DNA of 15,879 nt from a virus (lineage: Duplodnaviria > Heunggongvirae > Uroviricota > Caudoviricetes), in the IMG/VR virus record IMGVR_UViG_2872158770_000005. The stretch is one strand, 5' to 3'. The notes below the pieces were generated by a model that was given only the letters and a program-made list of their open reading frames with translations, made no database searches and was not told the DNA's origin. This document shows positions 906-9,031 of this stretch, piece after piece. The first letter of the stretch is position 1, and each line of letters opens with the position of its first letter. A program made the position numbers and the translations under genes.

Positions 906-1988
906 TCATTTTCTCTGGCTGATCTTTACCGGATAACCATCCCGAAGATCAATTAAGTGCTCCGGTTCAGAAGCAAACCATGCATAAGATCCCCACGCCA
1001 ATTCTGGTATTGCCTTTTTAAAAGGCAGAGCACTTCTGTCCATAAATGCCGTAAGGAATGCAAGATTTTTCTCGCTGAACCCAGCGTCAATAGCCAAATG
1101 AGTGAGAGTAACTTTTCGTTCCCTGTTTATAGGCCCATCTGTCGCAACTACTTCAGTGAAAACTACAAGCATGTCCGAACCCGTTCGGTCCTCTCCCAAA
1201 TCAATCAAAATAATATCTGGAAGTGCTTTTGAGGCATCAATATTCAGCCCCAATGCTTTTGCCAATACATCATCCTGAGCAACAACTTTATTCCCGGATT
1301 CAGACAACCAGAGCACAGTTGGATTCTTAAGAAAATTAGGAGCAAAAACTTCGATGACGGCCTTAGCTATTGTACTTGACGGGCCCGGAGCTAAAGTTCT
1401 CTTCTCTCCATTTGGGAAAGTGACGACTACGGCATCAGCAGCAATCACTGCCCCTGATTTCAATAAACGCAACCTAGCAAGAGCGGCTTTGTTCAAATGA
1501 TTTTCTTGCCAGGAACTTATTGCACTCAGCAGCGAATCTCCTTCAAGCCCGGCATCAAAGAGTGCTGCAAAAGAGCGATTCAAACTGTAACGAGGACGAG
1601 AGGATGTGGTGGGTATACCTTTACGCTCAACAATTGCATTGCAAGGTATTAGGCCATTTTTTATAGTTTCATCACGTATTGGCTCACGCGTATTTTCCGC
1701 ATACCATGCATCAGCAGGCCTTATCTTTTGTTTAGAGAAAGTCATCTTTACCCAGCTTTCTCTGGACGCATCATCAGTAAGAGCAGCCTGCGAATCTCCC
1801 ATACTTACAACCTGGCTGGGCCTTATCCATCGCCCCAGCCCCTCAACCGCACCAGCATAAAACATGACAAAAATTGTTTTTGCAGCTATTTCCCGAATTA
1901 AATATCCACGATTCTCAGTCCCTTCAGGGAAAATTAATTGTAATCTTTCCCGGATAACATTCAATGGGGGAACAACAGGCAGATTCAT
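906..1988 (-). CDS. Putative Type II restriction endonuclease (cognate partner of the adjacent methyltransferase; family not assignable from sequence alone)
   Basis: 360-aa ORF directly downstream of the methyltransferase with a 4-nt ATGA stop/start overlap (1985-1988) and a GGAG SD; size and position typical of an R gene. No catalytic motif could be assigned by eye. Confidence 0.5.
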   Translation of the reverse strand: MNLPVVPPLNVIRERLQLIFPEGTENRGYLIREIAAKTIFVMFYAGAVEGLGRWIRPSQVVSMGDSQAALTDDASRESWVKMTFSKQKIRPADAWYAENTREPIRDETIKNGLIPCNAIVERKGIPTTSSRPRYSLNRSFAALFDAGLEGDSLLSAISSWQENHLNKAALARLRLLKSGAVIAADAVVVTFPNGEKRTLAPGPSSTIAKAVIEVFAPNFLKNPTVLWLSESGNKVVAQDDVLAKALGLNIDASKALPDIILIDLGEDRTGSDMLVVFTEVVATDGPINRERKVTLTHLAIDAGFSEKNLAFLTAFMDRSALPFKKAIPELAWGSYAWFASEPEHLIDLRDGYPVKISQRK

Positions 1989-3817
1989 GCAATCATCACT
2001 CCATAGAAACCAGCGATAGTTCTCTCAATAATCCGTCTGTGGACGCCAGCATCAATTAACGATTGAATCTCCATCACCTGCTCCAGAGAAGGCAACGGGA
2101 TTGAATTCAATTCATAGGCCGAAACAGCAACACTTCCGCTTATACACCTGAACGCCCGATCGACAACATGCGAATTAAGTAGCATATCAATAACATCAGG
2201 GCGAACCGCAGAGAACAATCCGTTTGAATATACAATATTAATATGGTTTTCAACTACTACGCCACCAGTTTCATCTATAAATCCCTGAGGTAAAATTGCC
2301 GCTAAAATCCTTCTGTCCTGTTCCTTCGATGTTGTCCGCTGAACAAGCACACATTCAGATTTTGTCACAAGGAAACCCTGTTGTGGGGTTATATCGATAT
2401 AGGGAACATGATTTTTTCTGTCTGCACTAAAACGAAAACCAGCTGAAGTTATTGATTCCGCCCAGACTAATGGGTAGCTATTTTTTCCTTTCGTCGTACG
2501 CAACTGCGACTTAAATCGATTCCAGACTAACTGACCTGTAGAGACTGAGTATCCCAGATCAGCTAAACGCGTAGACATCTGTTTTAATACATTAAGAAAA
2601 CAGGCATCATCTTTAACGCGTGGCAAAAGCCACGTTGCTCCACCTTTTTCTATATCAACATTACCTATTTTCTCAATTTTTGCTTTGTTCAACCCCTTAG
2701 GGACAAGTGAGGATACCTGGGCCCGAACTTTATGTTCTCCCGCCTTGAATGCTGTCAACATTGTTTCCTGGAGAACATCGTCAAAGACCCCATCCCTGTC
2801 AGTGACGAAATCAAGGGCATACGGAGTAGTTTTTTCGGTCAAAAGGGTTCGCAGCGCGGTGAAATACTGCCCACCAAGAAAAGAAGTTGGCGTAAGAAAT
2901 GCAATAACTCCTGTTTTCTCTTTAACCATGCGAACAGCTAAGTCGGTGAACAATCCATATAGATTTGCATGACCAAATAACGAACGAGAATATTTTTCTC
3001 TCGTTTTAATATCGAGAGTGACACGTCCGTAAGGCGGATTCCCTACCACAAGATCATAACCAGAAAATTTATCTTGCTGAAGCGCATCAGCAACAATAAT
3101 TGTATCTTCAGGCAATCTACGTTTTACCTTTACACATAGTGGCATTAGTACAGATTCGAGCAATACCAAACTCATCCAAGCCGCAAATGGATCGATTTCT
3201 ATCCCCTTTAAACGACGACTGATTCTCCTCAACATCCATTCAGGGGAAGACCCCTTGTCTTTTTTTAACATTCGAATGGCTACTGGTGCCAAAAATGCAC
3301 CGCCACCACACGCAGGATCAATAACCGATGCATGAGAAAAATCAACACCAGACTTTTCAGCCAGGTCCAAGAGACGCGCTACCAAAGGTGGGGGGGTATA
3401 GTAAGCCCCCAATTCCGAACGGTAAGCGGATGGCAGCATTACCGTATAAATTGACCCAATCAGATATCCAGCGTCCTCCGCCGGAAATTGAGCAATAAGC
3501 TCACCTGTTCGTTCAGCGAGCTCGCGTGCATCACATGGAATGTCTTCTATGTAAACAGTGTGCGGTACTGCCCTCATTTTAATGCTGCTTTTTTGCTTTT
3601 TTGCAAGGGTATCCCAATATGCAGCTACGATGCTGAAGCAGTATGAGCGGGCATGCATCAACCTTGACTGCCCGGTTTTGTAATTGCCCGCATAACCTTT
3701 GGCCATGGCTTTACAAGTTTGATATCTTTCCAGATTAGAAAACTCATTATCTGTAAAAAAATCAAAATGTTGCACATTCATAATGTAAAATCCTAATGTA
3801 TCAAACATGCGGGCCAT
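1985..3817 (-). CDS. N6-adenine DNA methyltransferase, gamma class (Type II modification methylase)
   Basis: Motif order X-I-IV: GAYYTPP, then DPACGGGAFL (AdoMet binding), then NPPYG (catalytic); about 340 aa follow motif IV, consistent with a target-recognition domain. Alternative start at 3784 (MNVQHF...) has a better AGGA SD. Confidence 0.85.
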   Translation of the reverse strand: MARMFDTLGFYIMNVQHFDFFTDNEFSNLERYQTCKAMAKGYAGNYKTGQSRLMHARSYCFSIVAAYWDTLAKKQKSSIKMRAVPHTVYIEDIPCDARELAERTGELIAQFPAEDAGYLIGSIYTVMLPSAYRSELGAYYTPPPLVARLLDLAEKSGVDFSHASVIDPACGGGAFLAPVAIRMLKKDKGSSPEWMLRRISRRLKGIEIDPFAAWMSLVLLESVLMPLCVKVKRRLPEDTIIVADALQQDKFSGYDLVVGNPPYGRVTLDIKTREKYSRSLFGHANLYGLFTDLAVRMVKEKTGVIAFLTPTSFLGGQYFTALRTLLTEKTTPYALDFVTDRDGVFDDVLQETMLTAFKAGEHKVRAQVSSLVPKGLNKAKIEKIGNVDIEKGGATWLLPRVKDDACFLNVLKQMSTRLADLGYSVSTGQLVWNRFKSQLRTTKGKNSYPLVWAESITSAGFRFSADRKNHVPYIDITPQQGFLVTKSECVLVQRTTSKEQDRRILAAILPQGFIDETGGVVVENHINIVYSNGLFSAVRPDVIDMLLNSHVVDRAFRCISGSVAVSAYELNSIPLPSLEQVMEIQSLIDAGVHRRIIERTIAGFYGVMIA

Positions 3818-5630: not shown

Positions 5631-6377
5631 TTACTTCACAACTCCCGGAAAGCTGACATTTGAACGCCAGCTATCCCAGTTAAACGTCACCCACCGACAA
5701 CCGTTCATGGTCATGCGGTCCATAATCCTCTCACCAAGAAGCGTGCTCATTGCGGCATGATTCAGGTTTGTTAACATCCCGACACTGCACAGTGATGCTG
5801 TCCGGCGATCAATTATCTGGTGCAATACCACCTGCTCGTTTTTCGTCTCCCGCTGAATGCCTATTTCATCCAGGACCAGCAAATCAACCCCGCAAAGCTC
5901 CTGTAAAAATTTTTCACCGGATTTGCCGTTGTCGTAGCTGTCATGCAACACGCTCATGACATCAGACTCGGTGACGATAATCACGCTGCGCCCCTTCGCC
6001 ATCAGCCGGTTACCCATCGCCGCTGCAAGGTGATTTTTCCCGGTGCCGGTTTTACCGCTGAACACAAAATTCGTGCACCCGGTCATCAGTTCGTCAGCTA
6101 TGGATTTGGCCTGGCTCAGCGCGTATTTTTGCCCGTCGTTCTGCACCTGATAATTCGCAAACGAGCATTTGCTGTGCAGAGGCTGGATGCCCGAACGATT
6201 CAGGATTTTTTCCACCCGCAACTGGCGATTCTGGCGGTTAATCTCCTCGCTGCGTTTTCGTCCTTCAGCAAGTTGCCATTCCCGCCACTCCTCCACCGTC
6301 CGGTACGGTGGAACCGCCCCCTGTGGTGCAAGTCTGTGAATACGTTCAAGAACCCCGGCTGCCGCAATGTTTTTCAT
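5631..6377 (-). CDS. Phage replication protein, DnaC-like helicase loader (AAA+ ATPase)
   Basis: Walker A GKTGTGKNHLAAAMG and Walker B DLLVLDEIG in the arrangement typical of DnaC; lies immediately downstream of the O-like initiator. Confidence 0.85.
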   Translation of the reverse strand: MKNIAAAGVLERIHRLAPQGAVPPYRTVEEWREWQLAEGRKRSEEINRQNRQLRVEKILNRSGIQPLHSKCSFANYQVQNDGQKYALSQAKSIADELMTGCTNFVFSGKTGTGKNHLAAAMGNRLMAKGRSVIIVTESDVMSVLHDSYDNGKSGEKFLQELCGVDLLVLDEIGIQRETKNEQVVLHQIIDRRTASLCSVGMLTNLNHAAMSTLLGERIMDRMTMNGCRWVTFNWDSWRSNVSFPGVVK

Positions 6378-6383
6378 GCCACA

Positions 6384-7448
6384 TCACCCCCTGAATCCCG
6401 GCGGAATTTCGGTATCCGGTTCAGAAATATGATTCACACAACGCTGGTTGTTCGTGCCGCTTACCGGGAGCAACCAGGGGTTTTCAAAATTCCGGTCCGG
6501 CCCAAAAAACGTCGTCGCTCGCTGAACAAATTCCGTTCCCGCTTTCCCGGTCGCCGCCAGGTATCTCGCGTAACGCCTCACACCATCCAGCATGGTCTCT
6601 GGTGGCACCCCCTCGCGCAATCTGGCCTTCCAGGCACTGAATGCGGATTTCTTCGGGTTTGCCCCGGCACGCAACGGGTATTCCCGCCAGACCTGTTCGA
6701 ACACATCCGGATAATCCACTCGTCCCACAGGCTGCCCGGTGTTTTCCGGGGCTACCCGATCGGCTTCCCGCTGAATGGCGGAATCGGCTTCAGGCTGCTG
6801 CAGTTGGAGTGATTGCTCCGGCCTTGCGGTCATCACCTGCTGCACAGCGCCCGAATCGGCTTTCAGCGCATACGCTGAATCGGCTTCCGGTGTCGAGCCT
6901 GCTGGCTGACCAGGATTGACGGTCTGAACATCCCCTGCCTGGTTCGTGGCGTTTTTTACGCCATGGACCATAGTGTTTTGATCTTCTTTATCTGTATCTT
7001 TATCTGTATCTGTCGTGACTCGTCGTGACATGTGCGTGACATTTCGTGACGCGCCGTGACAATCGCCATTTTGTTCCCGCTTTCTTTCCCTCTCTCGCTG
7101 CGCCCTCTTGCGCTCTGCAGGAGATTTTGCGGTTTGCGAAATATTGCCGTTGTCCTCTTTAAGCACCTGGCGTTTTTCCCATCCAGTGATTAAATCACCA
7201 TCAAGTACCCGCCCCTGCATCGTCTGCAAAATTGAATCAATTACCTCTTCTGTCACGTCGAGCGCACTTGCCAAATCTTCTGTCGTGACATCAATGTGAC
7301 CTCGCGTGACATTTCGTGACGCGCTCACCAGGAGGTGGATATACACTGCCATCACTGTTGCAATTGGCTGCCCTGACACCCTGGCAATTGTTCGCCACTT
7401 AGGGTCATTTGGCATGTCATGCCATAATCTGAGCCAGGCGTTAGCCAT
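6384..7448 (-). CDS. Phage replication initiation protein (lambda O-like / YdaU-like)
   Basis: N-terminus MANAWLRLWHDMPNDPKWR and position upstream of the DnaC-like gene; ATG at 7448 with GAGGTGA SD (track start 7454 is GTG); carries internal iteron-like repeats. Confidence 0.7.
   Translation of the reverse strand: MANAWLRLWHDMPNDPKWRTIARVSGQPIATVMAVYIHLLVSASRNVTRGHIDVTTEDLASALDVTEEVIDSILQTMQGRVLDGDLITGWEKRQVLKEDNGNISQTAKSPAERKRAQRERERKREQNGDCHGASRNVTHMSRRVTTDTDKDTDKEDQNTMVHGVKNATNQAGDVQTVNPGQPAGSTPEADSAYALKADSGAVQQVMTARPEQSLQLQQPEADSAIQREADRVAPENTGQPVGRVDYPDVFEQVWREYPLRAGANPKKSAFSAWKARLREGVPPETMLDGVRRYARYLAATGKAGTEFVQRATTFFGPDRNFENPWLLPVSGTNNQRCVNHISEPDTEIPPGFRG
6986..7060. repeat. Tandem 12-bp duplication (CTTTATCTGTAT x2, 6986-7009) followed by five CGTGAC repeats at about 10-bp spacing (7014-7060); candidate replication-origin iterons
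   Basis: Read directly: tgtCGTGACtcgtCGTGACatgtgCGTGACatttCGTGACgcgcCGTGACaat. Lies inside the O-like gene, as ori-lambda lies inside O. Confidence 0.45.
7284..7320. repeat. Second cluster of CGTGAC-type repeats (iteron-like), also inside the O-like gene
   Basis: tgtCGTGACatcaatGTGACctcgCGTGACatttCGTGAC; the 16-mer CGTGACATTTCGTGAC is shared with the first cluster. Confidence 0.4.
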
Positions 7449-7519
7449 ACTCACCTCTTCTGATACCGAATCTTTTTACTCACGAGTTGCCGGGAGCGAT
7501 TCGATATGGCTATTGTCAG

Positions 7520-7945
7520 TCAATGTACTGCCACAGCATTTCCTGCCGGGCCACCACGGTTCATCTGATTGAAACCGGCGATTGCCACTGCGACAAAATC
7601 ATCAGCGTCTCTCACCAGTCGTTCATGCGTCTCCACCAGTTCCCGAAAATAAGCTGAACTGTGGCTGCGCATTCGAGCCACCAGCGGAGGTGGCATTGCC
7701 CTTTCGATCGCAGGTAACAACGCCTGAATTTTTTCAACAGCGTCAGGGGTGTCTTTATCCAGCCAACGGAAAATCTTTTGGGTGTTGAGATAAAGCGTGT
7801 TGTGCTTGCTGTCGTTATGCAGAACCGGAAACGTCATTCCCAGTTCGAAATAAACCCTGGTTATTTCAGCTGCCGGAACTTTTTCACCGTCCGGATGCGC
7901 CCAGGCTTTCATCGCCATGCGGATGTGTTCATGCTTGATTTTCAT
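7520..7945 (-). CDS. YdaT-like prophage protein (Rac-type toxic/regulatory protein)
   Basis: 141-aa ORF starting MKIKHEHI, same size and position as Rac YdaT (recalled); start overlaps the upstream Cro-like stop as ATGA (7942-7945). Confidence 0.6.
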   Translation of the reverse strand: MKIKHEHIRMAMKAWAHPDGEKVPAAEITRVYFELGMTFPVLHNDSKHNTLYLNTQKIFRWLDKDTPDAVEKIQALLPAIERAMPPPLVARMRSHSSAYFRELVETHERLVRDADDFVAVAIAGFNQMNRGGPAGNAVAVH

Positions 7946-8205
7946 GAATCAACCCCCGCCGATGGTTGTGTGTTAGCCTGAAACTCAGCAGGCAAGCCGT
8001 CAGTTGGGTTGGGGTAGGTTTTACTGTCAATCTCATGTGGGGTCACCACCCATCCCGTTGCTTCACACCAACGTAATATTTTTTCTCCTGTAAGTTTTGC
8101 ACGCCCCGTTATAACGTGGCTGACCATCCCTTGGGATGCGCCAACAATCTCAGCAAATGAACTCTGGGTTATATGAAAATGATGCAAATATTCTCCAAGA
8201 TTCAT
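7942..8205 (-). CDS. Cro/YdaS-like HTH DNA-binding protein
   Basis: Helix-turn-helix segment QSSFAEIVGASQGMVSHVITG; divergent from the repressor gene; ATG at 8205 (MNLGEYLHHF...) with SD; track start 8232 is TTG. Confidence 0.65.
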   Translation of the reverse strand: MNLGEYLHHFHITQSSFAEIVGASQGMVSHVITGRAKLTGEKILRWCEATGWVVTPHEIDSKTYPNPTDGLPAEFQANTQPSAGVDS

Positions 8206-8316
8206 AATCCGCCCTATGTGATGTGTTACCAATGCATAATTAATAGCACTGTTATTTTTAAAAGTAAATAGTGATGCTATTTCAAAGTGATTAGCAATCT
8301 TATTAGAATTGGATGT
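8206..8316. promoter_or_regulatory. Divergent promoter/operator region between the Cro-like and CI-like genes (OR-like)
   Basis: Contains near-palindrome AATAGTGATGCTATT (8266-8280), related half-palindrome AATAGCACTGTTATT (8242-8256) and palindrome GATTAGCAATC (8289-8299); possible -35 TTCAAA (8282-8287) and -10 TAGAAT (8305-8310) ending 7 nt before the repressor ATG. Confidence 0.5.
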
Positions 8317-8817
8317 ATGAAAAGAAAATCATTGTCAGACACCGACCTCAACGCCGCCAGAAGACTGAAAGAAATCTGGATGGCAAAGAAATCTCAGTTG
8401 GGATTGACTCAGGAACGTGCGGCGGAAATTATGGGGTTTTCAACACAAGGGGCGGTAAGTCACTACCTAAATGGTCAAACCCCACTAAACCTTGAGGCTG
8501 TTCTAAAGTTTGCTGGCTTACTGAAAGTTCCCCCTGAGTCAATCAGGCCAGACATGGTAGATTTGCTGCAAATTGCAAGGATGTATTGTCGAGAACCACA
8601 GCAAGATAACATAGTCGCATTACCAGCAGACACAGAACAAACAGAGGATGAACTACCGTTTGCCGTAGAGCCGATGGAACGAGATTTAATCCATACGTTC
8701 AGAGCTTTTCCGAAAGAAGATCAAGAACACATGCTTCAGGAGATGAAAGATAAAAAAGAATCAATGGATCGTACGGTTGCGCGGTGGTTAGCTGCACAAA
8801 AAGGCCGTCGCGCCTAA
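8317..8817 (+). CDS. CI-type HTH (XRE family) prophage repressor, RacR/PaaR2-like; no recognisable S24 peptidase domain
   Basis: HTH LGLTQERAAEIMGFSTQGAVSHYLNG; divergent from the Cro-like gene; first gene of the repressor-antitoxin-toxin unit. Start set to ATG 8317 (MKRKSLSDT...) rather than the longer track ORF. Confidence 0.8.
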   Translation: MKRKSLSDTDLNAARRLKEIWMAKKSQLGLTQERAAEIMGFSTQGAVSHYLNGQTPLNLEAVLKFAGLLKVPPESIRPDMVDLLQIARMYCREPQQDNIVALPADTEQTEDELPFAVEPMERDLIHTFRAFPKEDQEHMLQEMKDKKESMDRTVARWLAAQKGRRA

Positions 8818-8836
8818 ATCAGAGGAGATATGTAAA

Positions 8837-9031
8837 ATGAGTACAGTCCTTTCCCCAATGGTTTCAGAATTTGAGACAGTTGAGCAAGAAAATAGTTACA
8901 ACGAATGGCTGCGGGCCAAAGTAGCAGCAAGCCTCGCGGATCCCCGCCCGGCGATTCCGCATGATGAGGTAATGGCGGAAATGGAACAAATTATTGCCCA
9001 AATTGCTGCTGCAACTCACAGAGGTGAATAA
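8837..9031 (+). CDS. Type II antitoxin, PaaA2/ParD-like
   Basis: 64-aa ORF directly upstream of and overlapping (TAATG) a ParE/RelE toxin gene; AGAGGAG SD; sequence matches my recollection of PaaA2. Confidence 0.65.
   Translation: MSTVLSPMVSEFETVEQENSYNEWLRAKVAASLADPRPAIPHDEVMAEMEQIIAQIAAATHRGE

Follow-up and report, generated by a model that had tools for sequence, protein, structure and literature searches.

A divergently oriented cro-like/ydaT gene pair with the organization of a CP-933P/Sp12-type lambdoid immunity region

We analyzed a pair of genes at positions 7520-8205 of a 15,879-nucleotide (nt) stretch of viral DNA (Caudoviricetes; IMG/VR record IMGVR_UViG_2872158770_000005), which is referred to here in its entirety as the window. 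The pair is encoded on the minus strand and consists of a gene in the position of cro, whose 87-amino-acid (aa) product belongs to the helix-turn-helix (HTH) regulators, followed by a ydaT gene (Table 1). A preceding sequence-only reading had stated that the stop codon of the first gene and the start codon of the second share an ATGA, and that the pair lies opposite the repressor gene. Both statements are exact: the overlap can be read directly from the sequence and the open reading frames (ORFs), and the repressor gene is transcribed divergently on the plus strand, separated from the pair by an intergenic region of 111 base pairs (bp). NCBI/RefSeq annotation of near-identical Escherichia coli loci contains the same genes of 264 and 426 nt with the same 4-nt overlap, and the cro analogue and ydaT also overlap by 4 nt in Sp12 of strain Sakai, the published equivalent of CP-933P. 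All five genes of the immunity module are intact. As set out below, we consider it very likely that 7520-8205 comprises the first two genes of the rightward early (PR) operon in a lambdoid prophage immunity region of the CP-933P/Sp12 type.

The 141-aa protein is, by sequence homology, a member of the YdaT family. It matched PF06254 (YdaT_toxin) with 36.9 bits at a cut-off of 21, and phrog_163, described as a 'CII-like transcriptional activator', with E 3e-40. The structure PDB 3C4R aligned to window YdaT residues 1-141 with 87% identity (E 4e-79), and that of CP-933P YdaT (PDB 8BT1) aligned over residues 2-141 with 76% identity (E 3e-70), in both cases with no insertions or deletions (indels). 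Solved proteins of this family have a POU-type domain and a long helix, alpha6, that serves tetramerisation. Identity to YdaT of Sp12, a prophage reported to be identical to CP-933P (Jurenas et al. 2021, PMC8630535), was 76.6%, and identity to Rac YdaT was 33% (E 3e-16). The window protein has the recognition-helix residues F59-R60-W61, and no variation was seen at residues 54-61 among 113 clusters of related proteins. The conserved arginine of this helix is Arg60 in CP-933P and R57 in Rac (PMC9986795, PMC11879457), and inspection of the sequences showed residues 54-71, including the recognition helix, to be the same in window and CP-933P YdaT. The gene sits between the cro analogue and the replication initiator gene, an order that is also found in Sp12 and in isolated phages.

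The 87-aa protein scored 20.8 bits against HTH_3, below the cut-off of 23, and matched phrog_35 ('transcriptional repressor') with E 8e-17. It is 100% identical to E. coli WP_001048456.1 and 51-53% identical to the products of genes in the cro position of Stx2a-converting phages and of the Rac-like phage Rac-SA53, in which ydaT is the next gene. BLASTP produced no alignment to the YdaS proteins of Rac or Sp12/CP-933P, and the protein gave no match to PF15943 even at E<=10, while the controls Sp12 YdaS and Rac YdaS scored 46.5 and 107.7 bits at a cut-off of 30. Membership of the YdaS family (PF15943 / COG4197) was rejected on these two negative results. The gene is the first of the operon that diverges from the repressor, and its product is, by position, a Cro analogue, one that its sequence places outside the YdaS family. 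The sequence-only reading had treated the two genes as the equivalent of the Rac pair and had proposed an alignment to Rac YdaS and YdaT as a check; the YdaT half of that equivalence holds, as does the cro position, but the YdaS half does not.

The regulatory sites around the repressor gene are organized as in a lambdoid immunity region, with candidate divergent promoters overlaid by repeated operators and a second operator set at a candidate distal leftward promoter. Exact matches to the operator consensus ATAGCAnnnnTATT in the 15.9-kb window are confined to the OR and OL regions. A consensus promoter scan detected the candidate PRM and reported no PR; the PR and PL listed in Table 1 are below-threshold candidates that were read by eye, the former agreeing with the consensus at 8 of 12 positions and overlapping OR sites 1 and 2. 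With 8 nt between the end of the PRM -10 element and the repressor ATG, the repressor mRNA would be leaderless, and leaderless messages have been shown experimentally for paaR2 and lambda cI (PMC8630535). Behind parE2 we noted a hairpin (CCACC-TTAG-GGTGG followed by a run of T, 9340-9360) that the terminator scan did not list. The operators that directly follow this hairpin suggest an OL/PL region.

Compared with characterised proteins, the repressor combines its domains in chimeric fashion. Its N-terminal domain resembles that of lambda CI (E 3e-9), and its C-terminal 44 aa alone align to PaaR2 (52% identity, E 5e-15) and are also DicA-like; homology to PaaR2 does not extend over the full length. 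Homology to RacR was considered and rejected, since no similarity was found. HTH_3 and HTH_31 were the only domains in a profile search of the 166-aa protein, which showed no S24 peptidase domain, and because this autocleavage domain is lacking the switch is probably not SOS-inducible. A repressor of this kind, unlike that of lambda, is typical of DicA/PaaR2-type variants; PaaR2 likewise has no S24 domain (PMC8630535).

Table 1. Positions of the genes and regulatory features of the immunity region and its neighborhood in the window.
Feature	Position	Strand	Basis or remark
cro-position gene, 87-aa XRE-type HTH regulator	7942-8205	-	ORF; ATG at 8205, stop TGA 7944-7942
ydaT, 141-aa YdaT-family CII-like activator	7520-7945	-	ATG 7945-7943, stop 7520-7522
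ATGA, cro-like stop TGA overlapping ydaT start ATG	7942-7945	-	read directly; plus strand TCAT
YdaT-box (OM), perfect inverted repeat TTGATT-N6-AATCAA	7935-7952	.	ATGA in 6-bp spacer; only match in window
Shine-Dalgarno-like GGGGG, within last cro-like codons	7953-7957	-	sequence; 7 nt upstream of ydaT ATG
Candidate PRE -10, TGtTAGCCT	7971-7979	+	inferred; hexamer TAGCCT 7974-7979; start near 7986; reads toward repressor
OR region, three operator-like sites ATAGCAnnnnTATT, ~24 bp spacing	8243-8304 (8243-8256, 8267-8281, 8291-8304)	.	exact consensus confined to OR and OL
Candidate PR, TTTACT-17-TATTAA, for cro-like gene, ydaT and replication genes	8240-8268	-	read by eye; below scan threshold
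Candidate PRM, TTCAAA-17-TAGAAT	8281-8309	+	promoter scan; -10 ends 8 nt before repressor ATG
Repressor, CI analogue, 166 aa	8317-8817	+	lambda-CI-like N-terminal HTH and PaaR2/DicA-like C-terminal domain
paaA2 / parE2, toxin-antitoxin pair	8837-9031 / 9031-9321	+	co-oriented with repressor
OL-like operators, two	9378-9418 (9378-9392, 9405-9418)	.	same consensus as OR
PL candidate, -35 TTTACA	9391-9396	.	read by eye
O-like replication initiator	6384-7454	-	phrog_3729 E 3e-250; iterons inside
DnaC-like helicase loader	5631-6377	-	IstB/DnaC Pfam; 87% identical to Sp12, 80% to Rac YdaV

A 4-nt ATGA is the commonest kind of overlap between bacterial genes and is unremarkable alone. At this locus it lies in the spacer of the YdaT-box, which reads TTGATTCATGAAAATCAA on the ydaT strand and is identical in Sp12. 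The motif TTGATT-N6-AATCAA is the footprinted high-affinity YdaT operator in CP-933P (PMC9986795) and in Rac (PMC11879457). For the junction, we set side by side nine loci whose seven cro alleles are unrelated to one another, namely those of the window type, Sp12, Tritos, 813R8, 606R7, a Klebsiella phage and Rac. The sequence GATTC-ATGAAAATCA(A/G)GCATGA is present at the junction in all compared loci, with unrelated sequence upstream, and GATTC-ATGAAAATCAAGCATGA is kept beside the seven unrelated cro alleles. As read from these sequences, the 18-bp junction would pack together the cro stop, the Shine-Dalgarno sequence (SD) and start of ydaT, the YdaT operator and the upstream region of PRE, and it is this packing that would account for its retention across heteroimmune phages. 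The cro analogue ends at the TGA within ATGA, giving a 4-nt overlap that is annotated likewise in the other genomes, in seven loci (the window, three E. coli loci, Sp12, Tritos and 606R7). The next TGA is used in 813R8 and the Klebsiella phage, which yields an overlap of 17 nt, and in Rac and Rac-SA53 the upstream gene ends before the box, leaving gaps to ydaT of 22 and 10 nt, respectively. The ATGA overlap is conserved because ydaT starts with ATG-AAA inside the spacer of the conserved 18-bp operator. It thus follows from a conserved regulatory junction and is no special feature of the window locus. We also observed that the window Cro-like protein and Sp12 YdaS, which are otherwise unrelated, share the C-terminus GVDS (7946-7957; 10264-10275 in the Sp12 locus), because the left half of the YdaT-box together with the SD encodes the last codons. 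Just upstream of 7946-7957, cro alleles and ydaT meet at a mosaic boundary.

The same comparison bears on the translational coupling that had been proposed for the pair. The ATGA overlap permits termination-reinitiation, and to that extent the proposal stands, but coupling is not required in the YdaT family, because every compared ydaT allele carries its own purine-rich SD at the same position, because Rac manages with a 22-nt gap, and because the RNA around the junction has no unusual structure. An mRNA structure that would sequester the start codon at the ATGA was considered and rejected: the fold of 101 nt had z = -0.78, and 38 of 200 shuffled sequences folded as well or better. Coupling of ydaT to translation of the cro-like gene is, on sequence grounds, possible.

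The box is also accompanied by a promoter-like element. In 9/9 loci the strand directed toward the repressor carries, starting 20-21 nt past the box, a TAnnnT hexamer: TAGCCT (after TGt) in the window type, TACAAT in Sp12, TAGTTT in Tritos, TATCCT in 606R7, TATGAT in both 813R8 and Rac, and TAGCAT in the Klebsiella phage. We estimate the chance of finding a hexamer at such a spacing at about 3% per independent allele, and since the flanking sequences are unrelated the fixed spacing is unlikely to be due to chance. It places the center of the box near -42 of a leftward promoter. The conserved -10 spacing fits a promoter of the PRE type, predicted here rather than mapped, and the primers of the PRE933P reporter fragment, which is activated by YdaT in vivo, span the same interval (PMC8630535). 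An antisense RNA resembling OOP and ending at 7711-7734(+) within ydaT was also considered and found to be weak, with a stem of 5 bp and a hairpin that is broken in Sp12. This terminator-like site combines a hairpin with a T-run and falls where six ydaT alleles do not differ in any nucleotide; conserved E-K-I codons dictate the T-run, and the number of terminator-like sites equals the chance expectation. An Rfam scan of 7300-9800 returned nothing meaningful, its sole match having E 0.25 and lying far below the gathering score.

Taken together with published work on its homologues, the locus would operate as follows. The Cro analogue would most likely compete with the repressor for the three OR operators and thereby form a bistable switch. 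YdaT would bind as a tetramer to the TTGATT-N6-AATCAA box at the cro/ydaT junction, and, once bound, would activate a leftward PRE-type promoter whose -10 element (about 7974-7979, plus strand) is embedded in the cro-like gene at its 3' end. The PRE transcript would run antisense to cro and feed the operon of repressor, paaA2 and parE2. We infer DNA binding, PRE activation and bistability from the homologues, and the same holds for the lack of toxicity considered below.

Several points weigh against this account. The experiments concern homologues, and the window allele is known from its sequence. The Cro-like protein and the repressor's DNA-binding domain are unrelated to YdaS and PaaR2, and the use of the operators would be deduced from their repetition alone. 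The -10 candidate of the window, TAGCCT, is weak, matching at 3/6 positions with a TG extension, and the YdaT-dependent promoter that has been mapped in Rac is ~190 bp away from its box (PMC11879457), so that the exact position of PRE may differ. The minority allele that the window carries in the alpha2-alpha3 loop of YdaT (residues 41-53) could alter its specificity. Finally, the prophage is broken by insertion sequence (IS) elements, and the switch may have lost its role in the phage life cycle.

The sequence-only reading had gone on to propose that the pair is a second toxic module like Rac ydaS-ydaT, kept silent by the repressor, so that loss of the repressor would be lethal and its retention favored in a defective prophage. 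Its premise was taken from the 2017 papers on Rac (PMC5700373, PMC5700377). It is true that racR is essential in Rac and that expression of Rac YdaT leads to filamentation and death (PMC5700373, PMC5700377, PMC11014345, PMC11879457), and window YdaT is a homologue of that protein with a minority loop allele. Later work has narrowed the source of the effect. Gucwa et al. found viability to be lowered by Rac YdaT alone and not by YdaS, and the toxicity to be relieved when rcsA was inactive; Rac YdaS was neither toxic nor able to modify YdaT toxicity (PMC11014345). Wons et al. demonstrated binding of Rac YdaT to the rcsA promoter, with off-target activation as the route to toxicity, and found that the CP-933P homologue cross-activates the YdaT-box promoter but not rcsA (PMC11879457). 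Jurenas et al. observed no toxicity of CP-933P YdaT; growth defects, which do speak for some toxicity in such modules, appeared only on prolonged overexpression of YdaS or PaaR2, and the ydaST-on state was stable, heritable and viable and formed the majority in their reporter (PMC8630535). Overexpression of lambda CII is also toxic, as cited in PMC5917428. In that article Jobling made the case for YdaS and YdaT as analogues of Cro and CII, and cited Christensen-Dalsgaard 2010 for the absence of toxin-antitoxin (TA) behavior of YdaS/YdaT.

For the window, the comparison that matters most is with the closest characterised YdaT, that of CP-933P at 76.6% identity, which has been described in print as a counterpart of lambda CII, is non-toxic and does not activate rcsA. 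The Rac YdaS component is itself non-toxic and has no homologue in the window Cro-like protein; the same genes are carried by viable temperate phages; and those who carried out the CP-933P studies and the later Rac studies expressly rejected a TA reading. For a type II TA system, too, the published tests on homologues were negative. A toxic module silenced by the repressor therefore finds no support against the nearer homologue, and we regard it as improbable. Nor does toxicity of the pair appear to be needed to explain why the repressor is kept: a more direct account is that the repressor is the first gene of an operon containing the addiction module paaA2-parE2.

One route by which the window allele could still be toxic was considered separately. 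The alpha2-alpha3 loop of its YdaT (residues 41-53; 7787-7825, minus strand) reads VLHNDSKHNTLYL, while most relatives have ELYDDSHPEA(L/M)AR, and this is a minority allele found in about 6-14% of related clusters. The loop patch is highly substituted and the flanking recognition helix is invariant. A compensated frameshift was rejected as its origin, the DNA alignment containing substitutions only and no indels. The patch may instead reflect mosaic recombination, or diversifying selection on a putative DNA-contacting loop. The exact DNA of the allele had no match in GTDB contigs searched with one genome per species; the nearest YdaT cluster, at 99% identity, is named for Shigella sonnei and has 51 member sequences, which points to a probable Shigella source that the three IS1 copies and the IS3-family element of the window would fit. 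That the VLHNDSKHNTLYL loop retargets YdaT to at least one host promoter, as Rac YdaT is targeted to rcsA, seems to us very unlikely. If it did, derepression of the PR operon would be toxic or would reprogram the host, probably Shigella, and, quite apart from ParE2, the repressor would in effect become essential.

The genes around the pair offer another way in which loss of repression could do harm. The antitoxin and toxin genes lie directly downstream of the repressor in the same orientation, in the manner of paaR-paaA-parE, and were identified by matches of PaaA2 to PF21217 (E 3e-23) and of ParE2 to PF05016 (E 2e-17) and PDB 5CW7, a ParE2 structure (E 7e-37). On the other side, the O-like and DnaC-like genes are intact and lie directly downstream of the pair on the same strand. 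Direct repeats of the TCGTGAC type form two clusters inside the O-like gene (7013-7060 and 7283-7320; 5 of the window's 7 exact copies lie here), which look like origin iterons arranged as lambda ori is in gene O. Derepression would in addition activate this intact replication module, in a prophage that IS elements have broken up and that may have lost the ability to excise. Escape replication of non-excisable lambda prophages kills the host, as is well established in phage genetics. Harm from over-replication in situ, rather than from the cro-like/ydaT pair, in combination with ParE2 addiction, could in this way keep the repressor in place, and the interruption of the prophage arms by IS1 and IS600-like elements fits such a scenario, as does the co-orientation of paaA2-parE2 with the repressor, a homologous locus of which stabilises plasmids (PMC8630535). 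This explanation draws on gene content and is compatible with the switch described above, since it offers no alternative to the identity of the pair; we put it forward as a tentative possibility.

The mobile elements lie at 1-698, 10278-10975, 12291-12988 and 14723-15879, and the window contains three IS1 copies (InsA/InsB ORFs) and an IS3-family (IS600-like) element whose OrfB has an rve domain. One IS1 abuts the 3' end of a truncated Rha-family gene (ORF 11524-12297), and the leftward arm is fragmented. Between the early-right genes of the prophage and an IS1 there is a restriction-modification pair (906-3817, minus strand), composed of an Eco57I/N6-methylase-type protein of 610 aa and a BsuBI/PstI-family endonuclease of 360 aa.

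Such fragmentation raises the question of whether the pair has survived intact by mere chance, as a remnant in decay that has no function, and the selection data alone would not answer it. We computed the ratio of nonsynonymous to synonymous substitution rates (dN/dS) against an E. coli locus at 83% DNA identity and obtained 0.14 for the cro-like gene and 0.20 for ydaT, within a range of 0.14-0.22 for the two, 0.08 for the repressor and 0.06 for parE2; these values reflect purifying selection on the gene family and say nothing of the window lineage itself. A remnant is nonetheless hard to reconcile with two full-length ORFs, with a Cro-like protein and a repressor that are 100% and 99.4% identical to E. 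coli copies, with intact operators and promoter candidates, or with the 51 member sequences of the nearest YdaT cluster. The YdaT-box, moreover, is perfect in the window and mutated to TTGGTT in the closest E. coli locus. We consider a remnant highly improbable, even allowing for the three IS1, the IS3-family element and the truncated Rha gene.

That closest locus, RMDEC465, encodes Cro-like, repressor and TA proteins with 99-100% identity to those of the window and a YdaT with only 86.5%. Its imperfect box results from an I3T codon change at the ydaT start (locus position 9546). The divergence of box and YdaT indicates that the ydaT segment has a history different from that of the rest of the module. 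More broadly, a five-gene immunity module of the window's immunity type was found in 69 complete E. coli genomes, and related ydaT DNA in 3049 of 5426 (56%). In isolated temperate phages, among them Tritos, Evi, the vB_Eco series, Stx2a phages and Rac-SA53, these positions are taken by YdaT proteins of 86-87% identity and by members of the Cro-like family with 51-53%.

These results bear on annotation and on defective prophages. Labels in databases, 'toxin YdaT family protein' and 'YdaS antitoxin/toxin' among them, encourage a TA reading of what at this locus is a lambda-type CI/Cro/CII switch, of the kind characterised by experiment in CP-933P. For annotators, the useful landmarks are the single 18-bp junction, in which the cro stop, the ydaT SD and start, the operator and the region upstream of PRE coincide at the mosaic boundary of cro alleles and ydaT, and the -10-like hexamer, which in heteroimmune phages keeps a constant spacing of 20-21 nt to the box. 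In the defective prophage itself, the actual addiction element of the window is paaA2-parE2, co-transcribed with the repressor.

Among known systems, lambda provides the general plan. In lambda as in the window, PR and PRM diverge over three operators and PL has a second set, the repressor mRNA is of the leaderless type, and the N-terminal domains of the two repressors resemble each other; an activator gene right after cro, with its site over its own 5' end, drives a leftward promoter antisense to cro; and replication genes of the O/P type follow downstream, with iterons inside the O gene. YdaT and CII, however, are structurally unrelated overall, YdaT having a POU-type domain and forming a 222-symmetric tetramer that binds an inverted rather than a direct repeat (PMC9986795). 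Unlike lambda, the window has a repressor without the RecA-dependent autocleavage domain and carries paaA2-parE2 in place of rexAB, and no cIII gene was identified in the window.

Rac, a cryptic prophage of E. coli K-12, has the same divergent arrangement of repressor, cro analogue, YdaT and replication genes, and a YdaT-box over the ydaT start that reads ATGATTCATGAAAATCAA. Rac YdaT activates transcription of the repressor gene in a CII-like manner (PMC11879457). Rac differs from the window in the low identity of YdaT (33%), in a YdaS that bears no similarity to the Cro-like protein and a repressor that bears none to that of the window, in the 22-nt gap, and in the lack of paaA2-parE2. Rac YdaT also has an extra histidine (H56) before the conserved Arg-Trp, and its toxicity stems from activation of host rcsA, which YdaT of the CP-933P type does not activate.

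The closest relative is CP-933P/Sp12 (CP-933P being a cryptic prophage of E. coli O157:H7 EDL933; PMC8630535; Prolic-Kalinsek et al. 2023, PMC9986795). Repressor, antitoxin and toxin are encoded on one strand and cro analogue, ydaT, O and DnaC on the other, and the 4-nt ATGA overlap, the YdaT-box TTGATTCATGAAAATCAA and a -10-like hexamer at the same distance from the box are all shared. Identities are 76.6% for YdaT, 75% for PaaA2, 67% for ParE2, 87% for the DnaC-like protein and 52% for the C-terminal 44 aa of the repressor. The differences concern mainly the components that would set immunity: the window has an 87-aa XRE/HTH_3-like Cro analogue where CP-933P has the 100-aa YdaS (PF15943), a lambda-CI-like rather than PaaR2-like N-terminal repressor domain, the operator consensus ATAGCAnnnnTATT rather than GTTTAGTAA, and an intergenic region of 111 rather than 97 bp; the alpha2-alpha3 loop allele of YdaT is also different. 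Different operators, an unrelated Cro-like protein and an unrelated repressor DNA-binding domain make the locus a heteroimmune variant of the CP-933P module. It is a new member of a characterised type, and in other respects an ordinary and widespread one.

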